A stretch of DNA of 15,398 nucleotides from a virus (IMGVR_UViG_3300045988_074390), one strand, 5' to 3'; shown: positions 1,550 through 15,398, counted from the first letter of the stretch. Translations and numbers: made by a program. The notes: generated by a model not told the origin, from the letters alone.

Positions 1550-3442
1550 ATGCCACGAAAAAAGCAAATAACCTTTTGGGCTTGTGACTTTGAGACAACG
1601 GTATGGGGTGAAAAAGTAGAGCAAGAAAAAGGTAAAAAACAAGACAGTACAGAAGTATGGAGTGGGGCTGATGTGGCTTTATATGACAACACCGAAACTG
1701 TAACAATAACTCATTCGATAAGAGATTTTTTAAACAGGTTTTTGACAATGAAAGGCAATAATATATTGTACTTTCATAACCTCGCTTTTGACGGTTCATT
1801 CATCGTTGATTTTCTGTTAAAAGAGGGTTGGCGTTGGGTGCACTGTAAAGATAAAGAAATGAAATCAAAAGAATTTCAAACCTGTATATCCGATATGGGC
1901 TCATGGTACTGGATTAAATTAAAATGGAATAAGACTTTTTTAGAGATTAGGAACTCGTTGAAGCTTATGCCGTCTTCATTGAAAAATATAGGGAAATCAT
2001 TTGGCACAAAGCACCAAAAATTAGACATGGAATATACTGGTGAAAGATACGCGTATTGCGATATCTCAGATAGCGAGAAAAAATATATTGAAAATGATGT
2101 GTTAGTGTTAAAAGAAGCTCTTGAAATGATGTTTAATGAAAAACATGATAAACTAACTATAGGCTCGTGTTGCCTATCAGAATTCAAAGGCTTTTACGAA
2201 AATAAACAATATGATAAGTTGTTTCCCGATATCAGAGAAGATTATCTTGATGAATCAATCACAGGCGTATGGAATCAGTGGGACTATGTTCATAAATCAT
2301 ATCACGGTGGTTGGTGCTATGTAAATCCTCAATACGCGCATACGGTAGTGGGTTGGGGTTTAGTGTTAGACGTAAATTCTCTGTACCCGTCCATGATGCA
2401 TAGCATCAGTGGTAACAAATATCCATTTGGGCACGGGGAATATCATAGGGGAGCGCCACCCGATGAACTTATAAGCTCTACTAATAAATATTTTTTTATC
2501 CGTTTCAATTGTCGTTTTCAACTTAAAAAAGGAGCGTTCCCATGGCTTCATATTAGACAGAGTGCATTATATAAAGCCAATGAAAATTTATATAGTTCGA
2601 ACGTCAGATATAGAGGTGAATATTATCGCTATTATCGCGATATTGACGGACAGATGCATGACACTAATATTACTCTCACTATGACTTGCACAGACTGGGA
2701 GTTGTTCCAAGAAACTTATGATATATACGACTTGGTTATATATGATTATATATGGTTTTACGCTAGAGAGGGGTTTTTTGATGAATACATAGATAAATAC
2801 GGAGAAGAAAAGAGAACCTCAAAAGGTTTTAAAAGGCAGAAAGCGAAGCTCTTTTTAAATAATCTTTACGGAAAATTTGCCATGTCGGATAATTCCTCGT
2901 ATAAAGAGCCTTATCTTGACGAAGATGGAATTATTAGATTTATCTTGCACGAGGAACATGAGAAGAAAGTCGGCTATATTCCTATAGGTAGTGCTATTAC
3001 TTCATATGCCATGAATTTTACAATCCGTCATGCTATGGCAAATTATGACAGATTTTGTTATGCTGACACGGATTCCATACATTTGATTGGACTAGATAAA
3101 GCAAATCTGGTTGTAGAGCACCCGACGAATTTTTGTTGTTGGAAATGCGAGAGTACATTTGATTTTGCTTATTATGAACGTCAGAAAACTTATGCAGAGC
3201 ATATAGTTGAAGAGAATCACAAGCCTTGTGAGCCTTATCTTGACATTAAAGCGTGTGGCATGAGTAGCCAAGCCAAGCAAAAATTTATTGAAGAGGGAAA
3301 AAATATTTCAGAGTTATCTCAAGGTCTGAATATGGAGTCTTGCAACTTAAAGGCAGAGCGCGTGAAAGGTGGTATCGTATTAAGAAATAAAGACTTTAAA
3401 ATTCACGCTCAAAAAGATAAAAAATTATTATATAATACTTGA
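1550..3442 (+). CDS. Protein-primed family B DNA polymerase (630 aa)
   Basis: All polB motifs are visible. Exo I: ACDFETT. Exo II: FHNLAFDGSFI. Exo III: YIENDVLVL. Motif A: LDVNSLYPSMM. Motif B: KAKLFLNNLYGKF. Motif C: YADTDSIH. KxY: RQKTYAE. Insertions between the motifs are consistent with TPR1/TPR2 of phi29-type enzymes. Confidence 0.97.
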   Translation: MPRKKQITFWACDFETTVWGEKVEQEKGKKQDSTEVWSGADVALYDNTETVTITHSIRDFLNRFLTMKGNNILYFHNLAFDGSFIVDFLLKEGWRWVHCKDKEMKSKEFQTCISDMGSWYWIKLKWNKTFLEIRNSLKLMPSSLKNIGKSFGTKHQKLDMEYTGERYAYCDISDSEKKYIENDVLVLKEALEMMFNEKHDKLTIGSCCLSEFKGFYENKQYDKLFPDIREDYLDESITGVWNQWDYVHKSYHGGWCYVNPQYAHTVVGWGLVLDVNSLYPSMMHSISGNKYPFGHGEYHRGAPPDELISSTNKYFFIRFNCRFQLKKGAFPWLHIRQSALYKANENLYSSNVRYRGEYYRYYRDIDGQMHDTNITLTMTCTDWELFQETYDIYDLVIYDYIWFYAREGFFDEYIDKYGEEKRTSKGFKRQKAKLFLNNLYGKFAMSDNSSYKEPYLDEDGIIRFILHEEHEKKVGYIPIGSAITSYAMNFTIRHAMANYDRFCYADTDSIHLIGLDKANLVVEHPTNFCCWKCESTFDFAYYERQKTYAEHIVEENHKPCEPYLDIKACGMSSQAKQKFIEEGKNISELSQGLNMESCNLKAERVKGGIVLRNKDFKIHAQKDKKLLYNT

Positions 3443-3470
3443 CTATATTTTAGCGTCGTGTTATTATAAT
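3439..3470 (+). promoter_or_regulatory. Early-type promoter, copy A of a duplicated promoter
   Basis: TTGACT (3439-3444, overlapping the polymerase stop codon), 17-nt spacer, then TGT-TATTAT (3459-3467) overlapping TATAAT (3465-3470). The architecture and ACTTGAC core match the ITR promoters. Confidence 0.65.
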
Positions 3471-3506: not shown

Positions 3507-3695
3507 ATGGGTAAAAAAATTGAATATCCGTTAAACAGCTTGTACGGGGTAAGCTCAATGTCACATAGTAGTAATGTAAGAACTGACACAAATTTAAAAA
3601 ACGCTGAGATTACGGCTAAACTTATTACTATTCGTGATGGTTTTTTATATGCTGATACAGATAGTATATATGTAAGAGATTTAGATAAAAAATAA
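3507..3695 (+). CDS. 62-aa ORF retaining polB motif B-like (PLNSLYG) and motif C (YADTDSIYV); either a polymerase palm-fragment microprotein or a gene remnant
   Basis: It has its own SD (AAGGAG, 8-nt spacer) and its own promoter. The protein aligns by eye with resident polymerase residues ~431-520, with an internal deletion: LNNLYGKFAMSDNSS vs LNSLYGVSSMSHSS, AITS vs EITA, YADTDSIHLIGLDKA vs YADTDSIYVRDLDKK. The DNA is not a recent copy of the resident gene. Confidence 0.5.
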   Translation: MGKKIEYPLNSLYGVSSMSHSSNVRTDTNLKNAEITAKLITIRDGFLYADTDSIYVRDLDKK

Positions 3696-3712
3696 AAATT
3701 ATAACATAACAC

Positions 3713-3744
3713 TTGACTACATTTAATTGTTGTGTTATTATAAT
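3713..3744 (+). promoter_or_regulatory. Early-type promoter, copy B of the duplicated promoter
   Basis: TTGACT (3713-3718), 17-nt spacer, then TGT-TATTAT (3733-3741) overlapping TATAAT (3739-3744). The roughly 48-nt stretch 3711-3758 is an imperfect direct repeat of 3437-3487. Confidence 0.65.
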
Positions 3745-3810: not shown

Positions 3811-4110
3811 ATGTTTACAAGGACATTAGTCACAGCGGAGGTTTCTGTAGAAAGAATCTACAAGGACAAAGAGACAGGTGAAATCAAGAAAGATTGCTTT
3901 GAAGAGAAATTGTCAAACTGTAAGACAAGGGATAAAGCGGAAATCTTGATTGAAAAGCAGTACAAGGGAGACATTGTTTCCATATTAGACATTAAGTTTA
4001 AAGTGGAAAGACGCACAATGACAGAAGAGCAGTTTTTACTTAATTCAGACGTCAAGAACGAAAAAATTGTTACCGAAGCAGAGTTGCAGGACATGAAAAA
4101 GGAAGATTAA
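3811..4110 (+). CDS. Hypothetical early protein (99 aa); possible dsDNA-binding (p6-like) replication accessory protein, by size and position only
   Basis: The ATG at 3811 is preceded by AAGGAGGA. The longer ORF starting at 3727 would begin inside the promoter and has no SD. The protein is charged with an acidic C-terminus. No recognisable motif was found. Confidence 0.6.
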   Translation: MFTRTLVTAEVSVERIYKDKETGEIKKDCFEEKLSNCKTRDKAEILIEKQYKGDIVSILDIKFKVERRTMTEEQFLLNSDVKNEKIVTEAELQDMKKED

Positions 4111-4134
4111 CAGGAAAAAAGGAGGTAAAGAATT

Positions 4135-4485
4135 ATGGTAGAAATCAAAGAAATGAGTAGAGAGTTCACAAAGGTCGAGAAATATCTTATGACTACAGCG
4201 CCAGACATTGAGCCATTAAAAAATATTGACGATGGAGAATCTATCCCAGTTGACGGATATCTTATCTTTGATGATATCAAAGATAGCGGAGAAACACAGG
4301 AGATTGTAAGTATTATTACGCCTGAGAAAAAAGTATATTCTGGACAGTCTGCGACTTTTAGACAGTCTTTGAAAGACATTGAAAACGTGATGGAGGGCGA
4401 AAAATTCTCCATTATTAAAATCAGCGGAAAGACAAAAGCAGGACGCGATTATATTAATTGTACCTTAGACGTATCAAATTTATAA
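4135..4485 (+). CDS. Hypothetical early protein (116 aa); possible ssDNA-binding protein, by position and size only
   Basis: SD AAGGAGGT is present. It is the last gene of the second early operon and is followed by a strong terminator. The p5-like role is assigned only by analogy with phi29 gene order. Confidence 0.55.
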   Translation: MVEIKEMSREFTKVEKYLMTTAPDIEPLKNIDDGESIPVDGYLIFDDIKDSGETQEIVSIITPEKKVYSGQSATFRQSLKDIENVMEGEKFSIIKISGKTKAGRDYINCTLDVSNL

Positions 4486-4561: not shown

Positions 4562-4579
4562 ATGTTTCACGTGAAACAT
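4562..4579. promoter_or_regulatory. Perfect 18-bp palindrome ATGTTTCACGTGAAACAT, copy 1 (putative operator)
   Basis: Exact palindrome with a CACGTG core. It lies between the early terminator and the ATPase gene and overlaps the upstream in-frame ATG at 4578. Confidence 0.6.
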
Positions 4580-4595
4580 GAATGGAGGTGCTAAC

Positions 4596-5642
4596 ATGAT
4601 TGATGATGGTTATTATCATTGTGAGCGATTATTAACTATGAAAGATAAATACGGGAATACACCTGATATTTTTATTGTGGACGGCAACAGAACAGCGGGT
4701 AAAAGTTACTCTATTAAGTGTAGACAAGTCTCGGATTTTTTAAAAGATAAATACAGACCCGAAAATCAGTTTATCTATTTGTACCGCAATGTTGTTGATA
4801 TGAAGAACTGTGCCGACACTTATTTTGGAGATATTGCGGAAAAATTTGACGGTTATGTCATGACAGAAAAAAGTTTGATGCGTGGCGCGTTGGTGCAGTT
4901 ATTTATCAATGAAGAGCCATGCGGTTATTGTTTAGCTTTGTCGGTTGCGAGAAAGTATAAAAAAATGCGTGGGTTATTCGTCAATATCCGTTCTGTATTT
5001 TTTGACGAATATCAAGACGAAGATAATATATATTTGCCAAACGAAGTAAATAAATTACTGTCGTTACTTACAACTATCAGTTCGGGACATGGTAAACAGC
5101 ATAGGAGAGTTATGCTATATATGGCATCGAATACAGTCTCTTTGTTAAACCCTTACTATAGCGTGTTTGGTATCAATAAAATGTTAAAGAGAGACACCAA
5201 ATTTTTACGTGGTGATGGTTGGGTGTTTGAAAGAACTTATAATGAAAGCGCCTCAACAGCGTATAAGGAAAGTGCTATAGCAAGAGCTTTTCGTGGTGCT
5301 GAATACAACGAGTACGCCAGTGAAAACAAATATCTAAATGACAATGAATGTCTGATTGGGAAACCATCAGGGCAGTCACGTTATATTTGTACAATTAAGT
5401 ACAATGATAATCTATATAATGTAAGAAAATACGATGTGTGTCTATACGTGTCAACAGGTGCAGATGATAGTTTTCCTACCCGTATATGTTTTACAAAAAC
5501 CGATGTTATAGACAATACTGCTATTCGTGTCAACTCGACTCATTATATCGTTACGATGTTACGGGAATACTTTAACAGAGGTTTACTTTTGTTTGAAAAT
5601 TTGGAATGTAAGAACATGATATTTGATGTCATATCTTTTTAA
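4596..5642 (+). CDS. DNA encapsidation (packaging) ATPase, phi29 gp16-like
   Basis: Walker A is DGNRTAGKS and Walker B is SVFFDEYQDE. Other gp16-like blocks are present: QFIYLYR, YLPNEVNKLLSLL, ASNTVSLLNPYY. The start is set at ATG 4596, which has SD GGAGGTG 5 nt upstream. ATG 4578 has no SD and sits inside the palindrome. Confidence 0.9.
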   Translation: MIDDGYYHCERLLTMKDKYGNTPDIFIVDGNRTAGKSYSIKCRQVSDFLKDKYRPENQFIYLYRNVVDMKNCADTYFGDIAEKFDGYVMTEKSLMRGALVQLFINEEPCGYCLALSVARKYKKMRGLFVNIRSVFFDEYQDEDNIYLPNEVNKLLSLLTTISSGHGKQHRRVMLYMASNTVSLLNPYYSVFGINKMLKRDTKFLRGDGWVFERTYNESASTAYKESAIARAFRGAEYNEYASENKYLNDNECLIGKPSGQSRYICTIKYNDNLYNVRKYDVCLYVSTGADDSFPTRICFTKTDVIDNTAIRVNSTHYIVTMLREYFNRGLLLFENLECKNMIFDVISF

Positions 5643-5659
5643 TGTTTCACGTGAAACAT
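5642..5659. promoter_or_regulatory. Perfect 18-bp palindrome, copy 2 (20 bp with flanks 5641-5660)
   Basis: It starts on the last base of the ATPase stop codon and abuts or overlaps the -35 box of the 5659 promoter. Confidence 0.6.
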
Positions 5660-5690
5660 TGACATTTTAAATAATATATGATATCATAAT
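5659..5690 (+). promoter_or_regulatory. Early-type promoter firing into the 254-bp non-coding gap
   Basis: TTGACA (5659-5664), 17-nt spacer, then TGA-TATCAT (5679-5687) overlapping CATAAT (5685-5690). No SD-preceded ORF lies downstream before the 5825-5842 hairpin. Confidence 0.6.
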
Positions 5691-5808
5691 ATCGTACCCA
5701 AAATAATACGGGCATTGTAATTGATATACACGCACATAGACAAGTAGTCTGATATCAATTTTTGGCTTTGCGTTCCCTTTGATTCGATTATTTTGTAACG
5801 TACACAAA

Positions 5809-5826
5809 ATGTTTCACGCGAACAAT
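5809..5826. promoter_or_regulatory. Degenerate palindrome copy (15/18) in tandem with copy 3
   Basis: ATGTTTCACGCGAACAAT overlaps the perfect copy at 5825-5842 by 2 nt. Confidence 0.5.
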
Positions 5827-5842
5827 GTTTCACGTGAAACAT
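5825..5842. promoter_or_regulatory. Perfect 18-bp palindrome, copy 3 (20 bp with flanks); possible terminator hairpin and/or operator
   Basis: Exact copy followed by TTTTATTT. It ends 5 nt upstream of the -35 box of the lysis/late promoter. Confidence 0.6.
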
Positions 5843-5847
5843 TTTTA

Positions 5848-5876
5848 TTTACAAATATTGTTATTTGTGTTATGAT
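5848..5876 (+). promoter_or_regulatory. Late-type promoter upstream of the holin-endolysin cassette
   Basis: TTTACA (5848-5853), 17-nt spacer, then TGT-TATGAT (5868-5876). The -35 box is weaker than in the early promoter family. Confidence 0.55.
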
Positions 5877-5896
5877 AGAAAAAAGGAGGTGATATC

Positions 5897-6133
5897 ATGG
5901 CAAATGAAGTTATCACATTAATTAATAGTTTAGGGCTTCCGACCGTGGTTGCGTGTGCGTCCATGTGGTATGTAAAGTACAGAGAGGACAAAAACGACCA
6001 AAAAATTGAAAAAATGACGGAAGAACACAAGGAAGAAATGACAGATATTACGGACGCGTTAAATAATAATACGTTAGCGCTACAACGTATATGTGACATT
6101 TTTGATAGTAAGGAGGACATGAAACATGAGTAA
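5897..6133 (+). CDS. Holin, BhlA/UviB-like (78 aa)
   Basis: SD AAGGAGGTG is present. One N-terminal TM segment (ITLINSLGLPTVVACASMWYV) is followed by a charged coiled region (KYREDKNDQKIEKMTEEHKEEM), as in BhlA-family holins. The gene overlaps the endolysin start by 8 nt. Confidence 0.7.
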   Translation: MANEVITLINSLGLPTVVACASMWYVKYREDKNDQKIEKMTEEHKEEMTDITDALNNNTLALQRICDIFDSKEDMKHE

Positions 6134-7113: not shown

Positions 7114-7131
7114 TTTATTCACGTGGAACAA
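7114..7131. promoter_or_regulatory. Degenerate palindrome copy (13/18, intact CACGTG core) in tandem with copy 4
   Basis: TTTATTCACGTGGAACAA lies immediately upstream of the perfect copy. Confidence 0.4.
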
Positions 7132-7132
7132 A

Positions 7133-7150
7133 ATGTTTCACGTGAAACAT
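7133..7150. promoter_or_regulatory. Perfect 18-bp palindrome, copy 4 (24-bp perfect palindrome 7130-7153)
   Basis: It lies in the 55-nt gap between the endolysin and tail hydrolase genes, directly before the AAGGAGGG SD of 7168. No -35/-10 pair is visible here. Confidence 0.6.
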
Positions 7151-11747: not shown

Positions 11748-12647
11748 GTGAAAAATCCGTTACGAGTTTTCGAACTAAATATTAATAAAAAGAAAAACAG
11801 TGATTTTGACATAATAAAATCTATCTTTTTTTATGATATTTTCGATATCTTTGTAAACAGGTATCAATGGCATAATCTACCCGAAGAAATTCTACCGATG
11901 TACATTGAACAAACCTTATTTTGGCATGGCTTGGGTGTATTCATCAAGGACAATATTGCAGGATATGCTTTCATGAATGTTTCATTATCGGGTTTACCAG
12001 ATATTTATAATATTCCTCAAGACAGAATCGCTTATACTGCAAATGGGTACATTAAAGAATACGGTAAAGAAAACAGTTGTATCTTATGGAATAACTACTC
12101 AACTATGCCGTATTACTATAAAGCATTGATGTATGCCGATGCAATGGCTAATACTTGGAAAACAAAGGGTATTAATATGTATGCACAGCGTACACCTGTT
12201 GCCCTTTCCGCATCAGACAATGAAAAAATGAGTTTTGAAATACTGGGAGAAATGTACGATAATTATTTACCTGTATTAAAAGTTTCTGATTCGCTAAACT
12301 TGAAAGACATCAAAGCACTGGACATGGGAGCGCCTTACATTGTAGATAAATGCGAACAGGAATTGAGAGATTTATGGTCGCAAGTGTTAACGTCTTTAGG
12401 ATATGAGAGTAACCCAGTGGAAAAAGGGGAACGCCTTGTCACAGGTGAGACAGCAGGTAATAACGGACAGGTTGAAGCAAACCGAAATGTTGGTCTTACA
12501 TTAAGAAGAAGATGTGCAAATGCTATCAATGAGTTATGGAATCTTAATGTAACGGTAGACTTCAATAGTGAATTGCCTACTATGCTAAATGGTTACATAC
12601 CCGACAAGTATATGCAAAAAGGGAAAGAGGGTGACGAGATTGAGTAA
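11748..12647 (+). CDS. Portal / upper collar connector protein, phi29 gp10-like (299 aa, GTG start)
   Basis: SD AGGAGGTG is present. Blocks recalled from phi29 gp10 are present: WHNLPEEILPMYIEQTLFWHG, NMYAQRTPVAL (NQNAQKTPVLI), GAPYIVDKC (DAPYVVDKL), KGERLVTGET (KKERMVTDEV), INELWNLNVTVDF (INELYGLNVKVKF). Confidence 0.92.
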   Translation: MKNPLRVFELNINKKKNSDFDIIKSIFFYDIFDIFVNRYQWHNLPEEILPMYIEQTLFWHGLGVFIKDNIAGYAFMNVSLSGLPDIYNIPQDRIAYTANGYIKEYGKENSCILWNNYSTMPYYYKALMYADAMANTWKTKGINMYAQRTPVALSASDNEKMSFEILGEMYDNYLPVLKVSDSLNLKDIKALDMGAPYIVDKCEQELRDLWSQVLTSLGYESNPVEKGERLVTGETAGNNGQVEANRNVGLTLRRRCANAINELWNLNVTVDFNSELPTMLNGYIPDKYMQKGKEGDEIE

Positions 12648-13341
12648 ATACACTACTACAGTTAAAGATATTTGTGAAAGCTTTATCCCTAGACAAGAAC
12701 TATGGAGCATGGACTTATCCGTGCAAAGAACCATAGATAAAACACAAGACAAATTTTTCAACTTTGATTTCCCGTTTTATTCTGATGACAGAAAAGATTT
12801 ATATACTTTTAAGACATACTTTTTACTTAGGTATTGGAATAATTATATAGGGTTTGAAACTCTAGGAATGTGGAAAACTGCTTTCAGTGCAAAAATGCAT
12901 GAATTAATGCCGTATTATACTAAATTGTATGATGCAATTCAAGATGATAACCCTTTTACAAATGTAAATATAACAATCACAGAAGCAGAAAAAGGAAACG
13001 AAAAAACAACAACAAAATCAACAGATGCAGGAAACAGTGAAGTAAAAAACAGCCAAAATTATCAGAATATTGATAGTGATAACCCACAAGTCACAGTAGC
13101 CACACAAGACTACGCAAATGCTATGAGTAGGGGTGAAACTGTCAATAATACTACAACAACAGCAAAAAATGACCACACAGGAAACGACAACAAAGACAGC
13201 AAAAGAGACAGAGACACGAAAGAAATAGGATTAAGAGGAATATCAACAAGTGAAGCAATCGAAAAATACCGCGACCAAATACAGAATATCAACCGAGAAC
13301 TTGTGGAAGCTTGTCGGGATTTATTCATGAAAGTTTGGTAA
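12640..13341 (+). CDS. Lower collar protein, gp11-like (TTG start, 233 aa)
   Basis: It lies immediately after the portal gene. TTG 12640 is preceded by GAGGGTG with a 6-7 nt spacer and overlaps the portal stop by 8 nt. The region FPFY...FLLRYWNNYIGFETLGMWKTAFSAKMHELMPYYTKLY is typical of Picovirinae lower collar proteins, with a low-complexity polar middle region. Confidence 0.7.
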   Translation: MSKYTTTVKDICESFIPRQELWSMDLSVQRTIDKTQDKFFNFDFPFYSDDRKDLYTFKTYFLLRYWNNYIGFETLGMWKTAFSAKMHELMPYYTKLYDAIQDDNPFTNVNITITEAEKGNEKTTTKSTDAGNSEVKNSQNYQNIDSDNPQVTVATQDYANAMSRGETVNNTTTTAKNDHTGNDNKDSKRDRDTKEIGLRGISTSEAIEKYRDQIQNINRELVEACRDLFMKVW

Positions 13342-14219: not shown

Positions 14220-14927
14220 ATGAGTTCAACAAACAAAACAACCTATTATGATTTAAGTCAGTATATCGGTACTGACAAACCGACATATTTAGGAGATTAT
14301 AATTCTGATATGAGCAAAATTGATACAGGTATTCACAGTGCAGATGATAAGGCAACCACAGCTTCACAGAATGCAGGAAGCGCAATTGCTAGAGTTGGTG
14401 AAGTTGAAAAAACTGTGAAGTCACATACCAGTGCTATTACAACATTGCAGACAGATGCTACAAGTTTGAAAGAGAGTGTAAAAACAGCACAAAATACGGC
14501 TACCTCAGCAGATGGAAAAGCTGACAGCGCACAGCAGACAGCCAATAGCGCACTTTTGACTGCTAATAATGCCAGTGCTAAAGCCGATAATGTGAATAAA
14601 GATGTGACACTGTGGAGCGGTAGCGTTAAGAATCAGCCTGTGACACTTAACGATAGCTTGACTAATTACAGATTTTTGTATGTTGAAACAAATGCAGGCA
14701 TTTCACCTGTATTTGTTTATAGAAATGACAAGAAAAAATACGTTGGTGCTCAACAGGTTTTAAAAGACGGAGCAACAAATACCGTTGCCACTATCACCAT
14801 CATGATAGAAGTTACTGATGATACACACATTAAAGTTAGTGCTAATGCTATGGACCATGCGTTCAGTAGTACACATCCGTCACTTGACTCTATCTATACT
14901 TTGGGCGTTTATGGTATTCCAAGATAA
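14220..14927 (+). CDS. Putative receptor-binding tail fibre protein (235 aa)
   Basis: The N-terminus is YYDLSQYIGTDKPTYLGDYNSDMSKID, a fibre-anchor-like motif. An Ala/Thr/Ser/Gln-rich coiled stalk follows (ATTASQNAGSAIARV...TATSADGKADSAQQTANSALLTANNASAKAD). The C-terminus is a globular strand-rich domain. Confidence 0.5.
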   Translation: MSSTNKTTYYDLSQYIGTDKPTYLGDYNSDMSKIDTGIHSADDKATTASQNAGSAIARVGEVEKTVKSHTSAITTLQTDATSLKESVKTAQNTATSADGKADSAQQTANSALLTANNASAKADNVNKDVTLWSGSVKNQPVTLNDSLTNYRFLYVETNAGISPVFVYRNDKKKYVGAQQVLKDGATNTVATITIMIEVTDDTHIKVSANAMDHAFSSTHPSLDSIYTLGVYGIPR

Positions 14928-14940
14928 GAGTAAATCTTTA

Positions 14941-14976
14941 ATACTTAAACCCTCCGCAATAGGAGGGTTTAAGTAT
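14941..14976. terminator. Bidirectional intrinsic terminator between convergent genes
   Basis: A 15-bp perfect stem ATACTTAAACCCTCC (14941-14955) / GGAGGGTTTAAGTAT (14962-14976) has a 6-nt loop GCAATA. Flanking sequence is T/A-rich on both sides. Confidence 0.8.
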
Positions 14977-15257
14977 TAATCTATTAATTCTATCAAATTA
15001 TTATAATCATTCCAATAATACAAATCGCCATTATACGTCACCAAAAAATCTTTATTTGATGTATTATCTCGCCCCTCTAATAAATAATATTTACATTCAA
15101 CAATCTTATTATTAATAATATCAACATGTGTACCATAACATACAGCATTTTCTTTTAAATAATGAATGAAATCTTTCTTTGTTTTTTCTTTCATTAATTT
15201 TACAGTTTCCTTTTCAAAACTAAACCATCTAATTATATTTCGTTTTTTAAACCTCAT
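14976..15257 (-). CDS. Hypothetical right-end early protein (93 aa), the only leftward gene
   Basis: SD AAGGAGGA lies 6 nt upstream of the ATG on the minus strand. It is driven by the right-ITR promoter. No recognisable motif was found. Confidence 0.75.
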   Translation of the reverse strand: MRFKKRNIIRWFSFEKETVKLMKEKTKKDFIHYLKENAVCYGTHVDIINNKIVECKYYLLEGRDNTSNKDFLVTYNGDLYYWNDYNNLIELID

Positions 15258-15288: not shown

Positions 15289-15398
15289 TTGTTTCTATAA
15301 TTATAATACCACAGGTCAGATTATTTGTCAAGTATTTTTTCGTGCTTTTTTAATCAAATGGGGGACGTGTTCTCATTGGGAATAACGAAAGCCCTCTC
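15289..15398. repeat. Right inverted terminal repeat (110 bp, perfect)
   Basis: Exact reverse complement of 1-110, ending at the last base of the window. Confidence 0.97.
15300..15331 (-). promoter_or_regulatory. Early promoter inside the right ITR (mirror of 68-99)
   Basis: The sequence is identical to the left ITR promoter by ITR symmetry. On the minus strand, TTGACA is 15326-15331 and TATTAT is 15303-15308. Confidence 0.7.

Follow-up and report, generated by a model that had tools for sequence, protein, structure and literature searches.

What does the gap behind the packaging ATPase gene of this phage encode? The window, by which we mean the whole 15,398-bp stretch of DNA analyzed here, has its largest non-coding stretch at 5643–5896, between the ATPase stop (ORF 4578–5642) and the holin ATG at 5897. 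A first-pass annotation read this gap as the source of a promoter-driven, terminated, non-coding RNA with a pRNA-like structure. Every sequence feature that it listed is present and correctly placed, and our comparisons support its reading. Reviews of 2016 and 2024 restrict the known pRNAs to phi29 and Bacillus phages related to it (PMC5066667, PMC11476376); no description of one from a non-Bacillus phage turned up in the literature searched, and a paper on Clostridium perfringens phages merely assumes a pRNA-dependent ATPase. It has been unclear whether non-Bacillus phages with gp16-type ATPases need an RNA, a question that a second pRNA-like family would make directly testable, since HM2 and CS229P1 are cultured.

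The window is a complete, phi29-like linear genome, since it ends in perfect 110-bp terminal inverted repeats (1–110 and 15289–15398), each containing an inward-facing promoter, TTGACA-17-TG-n-TATTAT (68–96 on the plus strand, 15331–15303 on the minus strand). These repeats are much longer than the 6-bp repeats of phi29. The genes and gap features referred to below are as follows.

1550–3442, protein-primed type-B DNA polymerase
4578–5642, plus strand, DNA encapsidation ATPase of the phi29 gp16 type, with the RNA gene directly downstream
5643–5658, perfect 16-bp palindrome TGTTTCACGTGAAACA, immediately before the −35 box and with a mean identity of 0.986 across 79 genomes
5659–5687, plus strand, sigma-70-type promoter of the RNA gene, TTGACA-17-TG-n-TATCAT
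5694–5803, plus strand, conserved RNA core of ∼110 nt, equivalent of domain I, defined by its conservation edges, models R1 and R2 and G-U pairs
5806–5847, plus strand, hairpin made of two tandem palindrome copies (5810–5825 and 5826–5841) and a U-run
5848–5876, plus strand, second promoter, TTTACA-17-TG-n-TATGAT, for the holin and late genes, conserved in relatives
11748–12647, plus strand, connector of the phi29 gp10 type
14220–14927, plus strand, tail-fiber-like gene

The ATPase matches the PHROG terminase family (7.9e-53) and Pfam PF05894 (Podovirus_Gp16, 118 bits), and its best PDB match is phi29 gp16 itself (7JQQ, E=7.5e-27) over the full length, including the C-terminal domain (6V1W). 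The connector, identified by Pfam PF05352 (158.9 bits) and as a PHROG upper collar connector, has a basic patch, NKKKN, near its N terminus and is the expected docking partner for the RNA. The major capsid protein is also of the phi29 type (Phi29_MCP match), and holin, endolysin, scaffold, tail protein and lower-collar genes complete the assigned set. As mechanically listed, the connector ORF and the lower-collar ORF (12589–13341) overlap by 59 nt, and the true start of the latter probably lies further downstream.

Nucleotide searches of the INPHARED phages with the window and with the gap returned no match, so no deposited phage is closely related to it at the nucleotide level. Judged by the ATPase protein, Clostridium phages CS229P1-3 and HM2 come nearest among those in culture (37–39% identity), a level shared by some human fecal contigs; the phi29 group stands at ∼28%. 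A 13.2-kb contig, L178 (CAKSDT010000047.1), encodes an ATPase 98% identical to that of the window, carries the same palindromes and is evidently the same phage. It was placed in a metagenome-assembled genome labeled “uncultured Clostridia bacterium”, which is either a hint at the host or a binning artifact.

Searching IMG/VR with the ATPase yielded 79 close relatives at 88–99% identity, in all of which the gap measures 245–252 nt. The promoter at 5659–5687 is conserved in them, with the −35 hexamer invariant in 78 of 78 relatives and the TG and TA..AT positions of the extended −10 element also kept, while the spacer varies (mean pairwise identity 0.74). Mean identity across 5694–5803 is 0.93 (79 genomes), close to that of ATPase codon positions 1 and 2 (0.92–0.95) and far above position 3 (0.65). 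The edges of this block are sharp, identity being 0.67 for the six bases before 5694 and 0.79 for 5804–5809. On sequence comparison, this pattern fits an RNA that is transcribed and under selection, with its start ∼7 nt past the −10 box. The gap is non-coding, as had been proposed: two small antisense ORFs, 5667–5807 and 5684–5842 (46 and 52 amino acids), are not conserved, and protein coding is excluded because one-base, frameshifting indels fall inside them in 23/78 and 3/78 relatives.

The hairpin and T-run at 5824–5847, annotated as a terminator, are real, but the annotation had not noticed that the hairpin belongs to a genome-wide family, being one of seven copies of TGTTTCACGTGAAACA in the window. 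The hairpin formed by the copy at 5810–5825 and its neighbor has a predicted energy of about −17.6 kcal/mol, and with the U-run it is likely to be both the terminator and the 3′ domain of the primary transcript. The locus has a consensus promoter, conserved in relatives, as well as this likely terminator; on the transcript itself and its timing there are no expression data.

The seven palindrome copies (384–399, 4563–4578, 5643–5658, 5810–5825, 5826–5841, 7115–7130 and 7134–7149) compare with a chance expectation of 0.17. Four are perfect, one has one mismatch and two have three; they lie on either side of the ATPase gene, of the RNA gene and of the lysis cassette; one overlaps the ATPase ATG, and in nearly every clade-1 genome their relative placement is the same. 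The position of the copy at 5643–5658 is unchanged in relatives. In clade 2 the holin 5′ UTR contains two to four copies in tandem, spaced 26 nt apart, and exact copies also occur in CS229P1, HM2, MT835854 and MT835904. Because the variants are not compensatory, they suggest a site for a dimeric DNA-binding regulator rather than an RNA hairpin; no binding protein has been identified.

The secondary structure of the core was derived for clade 1 from an unfitted MAFFT alignment (A2), by RNAalifold and by counting pairs. Its elements, all on the plus strand, are listed here in window coordinates.

5694–5711, plus strand, 5′ strand of P1, equivalent of the A helix, with C5698 unpaired and A5708 between P1b and P1c
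5694–5697 with 5800–5803, plus strand, P1a, all pairs covarying across clades
5699–5707 with 5787–5795, plus strand, P1b, from RNAalifold and the pair count
5709–5711 with 5784–5786, plus strand, P1c, from RNAalifold and the pair count
5719–5727 with 5752–5760, plus strand, P2, equivalent of the C helix, 9/9 pairs covarying across clades and 100% of cells paired
5728–5736, plus strand, internal loop on the 5′ side, equivalent of the CE loop, holding ACGCA at 5730–5734
5737–5751, plus strand, P3 apical hairpin, equivalent of E, with stem 5737–5741/5747–5751 and loop AAGUA
5761–5783, plus strand, UUU linker, short D hairpin and conserved junction strand CUUUGAU
5764–5765 with 5775–5776, plus strand, D stem, an invariant GG/CC, with loop 5766–5774 holding UGCGU at 5769–5773
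5784–5803, plus strand, 3′ strand of P1, with a conserved 4-nt bulge, UAAC, at 5796–5799

The core is thus a three-way junction at which P1, P2 and the D hairpin meet. The closing helix that the first-pass annotation had drawn (GTAC/GTAC plus CAAAATAAT/ATTATTTTG) and its 9-bp hairpin correspond to P1 and P2, and both are maintained in relatives by compensatory changes. The annotation had staked its proposal on such covariation, and we find it for each structural element. Pairing holds for 99.2% of cells in A2, and double changes occur at seven pairs, a result reached by 0/500 shuffles. Within P1, U-A becomes C-G in nine sequences, the A-U pair 5702/5792 becomes G-C and U-G, and pair 5710/5785 is G-C in 45 sequences, A-U in 18 and G-U in 5. 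P3 undergoes A-U to G-C and G-C to A-U double changes in three sequences and has G-U in five. The G-U wobble pairs identify the plus strand as the RNA strand. Several column pairs with high mutual information (5767/5782, 5782/5783 and 5712/5767) were rejected as pairs, as they reflect two haplotype groups and include non-pairing combinations.

Folding energy does not contribute to this case. The 154-nt stretch that was to be folded does give z = −4.1, but the signal comes from the palindromes: the minus strand scores the same (z = −4.3), and the core alone (5694–5806) reaches only z = −1.4. We therefore rejected folding energy as evidence, and support for a structured RNA comes from conservation and covariation.

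Further ATPase searches added clades with ATPase identity down to 49%. After the ATPase gene, these diverged clades have a promoter, an RNA of 110–115 nt and a terminator; their RNAs are very different in sequence (35–57% G+C) and identical in layout. The clade 2 terminator is canonical, unrelated to that of the window and in the same place, and a promoter of its own follows. MAFFT and RNAalifold applied across clades found no structure, and iterated covariance models were required. A model built from clade 1 alone picks up the RNAs of other clades where they were expected (E 2e-6 to 5e-3), and models R1 and R2 match the window end to end over 5694–5803. The second-round model, R2, gives one match in each of 48 loci and no other at E<=0.1 in 388 kb. 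Taken together, the models locate exactly one copy of the RNA, behind the ATPase gene, in at least five diverged clades. Borderline R2 and R3 matches that fell inside coding genes, such as L175 11597–11697 in the DNA polymerase ORF, were discarded.

In the multi-clade alignment (A4), 92.4% of cells are paired, against 65% after shuffling, and 32/37 pairs show compensatory change. A4 was fitted to the nested structure, so its pair counts are biased toward that structure. Sliding the partner strands lowers pairing to 35–45% in both clade 1 and A4. The bulge in the 3′ strand of P1 recurs in all clades as U[ACU]AC, CAAC, GUA or GUUAC opposite a single C, and the D stem is longer elsewhere, with GGG/CCC in L108 and L112 and AACGG/CCGUU in HM2.

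The complementarity between ACGCA (5730–5734) in the internal loop and TGCGT (5769–5773) in the D-hairpin loop, also picked out by the first-pass annotation, exists and covaries in relatives. This loop-loop pairing lies outside every covariance model and is therefore an independent test. In A4, 5/5 column pairs covary and 93.3% of cells are paired. Ten different complementary pairs occur across lineages, written here as internal loop to D-hairpin loop.

Window, ACGCA:UGCGU
Clade 2 (L091), GCGUUA:UAACGC
L106, GAAUCAA:UUGAUUC
L112, GGAUA:UAUCC
L162, GAUA:UAUC
L110, GUACA:UGUAC
L108, CCCA:UGGG
L111, UCCA:UGGA
L165, AGACAA:UUGUCU
L171, UGCAA:UUGCA

Shuffle p values for single lineages range from 0.003 to 0.25, and their Fisher combination, estimated by hand, is ∼1e-6. 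A covarying loop pair of this kind is the CE-loop/D-loop signature of pRNA (PMC5066667, PMC2241910).

In every clade but L110 the RNA comes next after the ATPase gene; in L110 it lies ∼650 nt downstream of it, past an intervening gene. The gene on the other side of the RNA varies by clade and may encode a holin, a GH25 lysin or a different product. The L110 RNA gene (4700–4810) comes after the extra gene (product MLKKEIATQLFEHLC...), and in clade 3 (L108, 4067–4178) a homolog of that gene follows the RNA; the RNA gene and its neighbor have swapped order, which shows that the RNA gene is an independent module. Within the group at 37–39% ATPase identity, the ATPase gene, a closed RNA-like element and a terminator make up one unit whose orientation is reversed with respect to the neighboring genes. 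More distant gp16-bearing phages, namely phiZP2, CI130P2 and Enterococcus CUB-FM, have no gap after the ATPase gene, so the arrangement is clade-specific.

Models R2 and R3 do not reach CS229P1, HM2, MT835854 or MT835904. Folding of single sequences, without covariation, nonetheless assigns an unannotated RNA to each of two of these phages.

HM2, LT600745.1 6100–6192, with its own promoter, a GUUAC bulge and the loop pair GUAGUC:GACUAC (6 bp)
CS229P1, OP172772.1 10553–10665, 113 nt, with the loop pair CUGUA:UACAG (5 bp)

As in the window, both RNAs come after a gp16-type ATPase gene, keep the order P2, 5′ internal loop, P3 and D hairpin, and have a closing helix in which a single C or short strand faces a UAA or GUUAC bulge. 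They differ in having ATPases only 37% identical to that of the window and in being too diverged for R2 and R3; the HM2 junction is compact and closer to that of phi29. MT835854 and MT835904 also have RNA-like closed structures after the ATPase gene, but no convincing loop-loop pair was found in them.

Domain I of pRNA comprises 117–120 nt in the order A, C, CE loop, E, C, D loop, A (PMC5066667, PMC2241910). Its CE and D loops pair between separate molecules, which assembles the ring on the connector. The order in the window RNA, P1 5′ strand, P2 5′ strand, an internal loop on the 5′ side only, P3, P2 3′ strand, D hairpin and P1 3′ strand, corresponds one to one to that of domain I, and the cores of window-type RNAs are of similar size (110–115 nt). 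Both RNAs have a sigma-70-type promoter of their own, a long, bulged helix that joins the 5′ and 3′ ends, a three-way junction, and Watson-Crick complementarity of 4–7 nt between the loop of a bulge and that of a second hairpin that changes in concert between lineages. Both also belong to protein-primed podophages with a gp16 ATPase, a gp10 connector and a phi29-type capsid protein. The phi29 primary transcript is 174 nt long with a dispensable 3′ domain II, which the 3′ palindrome hairpin of the window parallels.

The differences are clear too. In phi29 the A-helix bulge is a CCA on the 5′ strand and the junction is compact and U-rich, whereas in the window RNA the 3′ strand of P1 carries a conserved 4-nt bulge (UAAC, UCAC, UUAC), and long single strands (CAUUG, CCCUUUGAU) are conserved at the junction. 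P1 is shorter than its phi29 counterpart, at about 16–19 bp, and the D stem has only 2–3 bp in most clades. The phi29 pRNA gene is located at the genome end and is not adjacent to gene 16, while the window RNA gene directly follows the ATPase gene, and the hosts are gut Clostridia rather than Bacillus.

The known pRNAs, those of phi29, PZA, M2/Nf, B103, SF5 and GA-1, form Rfam family RF00044 (Phage_pRNA). The layout that the first-pass annotation had called pRNA-like holds, yet the Rfam scan that it suggested found no RF00044 match, at the gathering threshold or even at E<=10, either in the window or in the loci of seven other clades, with a PZA control at 144.7 bits. Conversely, R2 and R3 do not match PZA pRNA, so homology to pRNA is not demonstrable. 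We have accordingly filed the RNA as a separate family that works, by inference, like pRNA and is not a member of RF00044. No other Rfam family was found in the window beyond chance microRNA and sRNA matches on the palindromes, and the claim that no other candidate RNA locus exists withstood inspection. The right genome end, the alternative suggested by analogy with phi29, was rejected, as it holds a real gene: a 93-amino-acid ORF on the minus strand (15257–14976) with a strong ribosome-binding site, AAGGAGG. Its product has no match in Pfam or PHROG.

That the gap encodes a new, well-supported structured RNA family, absent from Rfam 15, we hold to be nearly certain; the gene, its strand and boundaries, its secondary structure, the loop-loop pairing and the linkage to the ATPase gene are matters of observation. 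Its function is inferred. The best explanation, and one that we regard as probable, is that it is a prohead or packaging RNA, the functional counterpart of phi29 pRNA, because the window encodes gp16 with its C-terminal domain, gp10 and a phi29-type capsid protein, because element order, size and covarying loop pair match pRNA, and because the RNA stays with the ATPase gene while the downstream gene differs. The loop-loop pairing by itself does not settle the matter, as sequence data cannot separate pairing in cis from pairing in trans. In clade 1 the D region is nearly a 23-nt single strand and could reach the internal loop, so a genuine small RNA with an intramolecular pseudoknot and a role other than packaging, possibly as a regulator of the early/late switch, a decoy for a host factor or RNA polymerase, or an anti-defense RNA, is the main rival. 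The absence of detectable RF00044 similarity would suit such an RNA, as would junction strands as strongly conserved as in ligand- or protein-binding RNAs. We nevertheless think it less likely than a packaging RNA. Accessory regulatory RNAs are usually patchy in distribution, and this RNA is present in 48/48 relatives examined, once per genome, which weakens the case for one. It has moreover remained with the ATPase gene through rearrangements and an inversion, and its element-by-element match to pRNA in topology and size would have to be a coincidence.

The position of the RNA upstream of the holin gene, its terminator-like 3′ hairpin and the regulatory look of the palindromes that follow could instead point to a cis-acting leader, a riboswitch or attenuator governing read-through into the holin and late operon. 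This is very improbable given the conserved second promoter (5848–5876) between the RNA and the holin gene and, in clade 2, a strong canonical terminator followed by a separate promoter. The downstream gene differs between clades, and the L110 RNA comes after a different gene; no alternative pairing was seen between the P1 3′ strand and the terminator, and Rfam offers no match. Least credible of all is that the conservation reflects a small protein gene or an element acting as DNA, whether a signal for replication or packaging or an array of protein-binding sites. Equal folding of the minus strand, the two antisense ORFs and the flanking palindromes might be cited for it, but the equal energy is due solely to the palindromes, the many G-U pairs would turn into A-C mismatches if the opposite strand, or a DNA cruciform, were the folded form, the ORFs are broken by frameshifting indels, and the conserved promoter points into the element.

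On the best explanation the gap holds a stand-alone small RNA gene, whose transcription would start from the strong sigma-70-type promoter at ∼5694 and stop at the palindrome hairpin and U-run near 5847. The ∼110-nt core folds into a three-way junction made of long, bulged P1, the arm formed by P2, internal loop and P3, and the short D hairpin, with five internal-loop nucleotides paired with the D-hairpin loop. If the RNA is indeed the counterpart of pRNA, copies would link head-to-tail by loop-loop pairing into a ring on the gp10-type connector of the empty prohead, from which the P1 helices would hold the gp16-type ATPase while the protein-primed genome is packaged. Pairing between molecules, binding to the prohead and a requirement for packaging are all inferred here, without binding or expression data.

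On balance we lean toward regarding the RNA as the founding member of a second, previously unrecognized pRNA family, in which case RNA-scaffolded motors are not confined to Bacillus phages. RNA-scaffolded packaging would then extend across a large phi29-like radiation in gut Clostridia (>150 genomes here, plus HM2 and CS229P1), bearing on whether the RNA component is ancestral. The closing helix, bulge, junction and kissing loops could be compared as pRNA features for motor function. RNA nanotechnology, which currently relies on the phi29 three-way junction and loops, would gain new self-assembling modules. The family would also bring a three-way junction of novel design and at least ten naturally occurring kissing-loop pairs, each distinct from the others. 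Should the RNA prove to have another function, it would still represent a well-supported new structured RNA family.

Several minor features accompany these loci. In clade 4 (L165–L170, about 4077–4200), the closing-helix 3′ strand GGGCUUC directly precedes UUUUAUUU without a separate hairpin, and the closing helix may double as the terminator. Elsewhere in the window, a 58-nt promoter module is repeated with 81% identity at 3413–3470 and 3687–3744, each copy ahead of a small ORF. It consists of an A/T-rich upstream part followed by TTGACT-17-TG-n-TATTATAAT and resembles the terminal-repeat promoter (42–99), with which it may form one promoter class. Near the right end, a strong 18-bp hairpin (14938–14979) lies between the convergent tail-fiber-like gene (plus strand) and the 93-amino-acid gene (minus strand), and looks like a bidirectional terminator.
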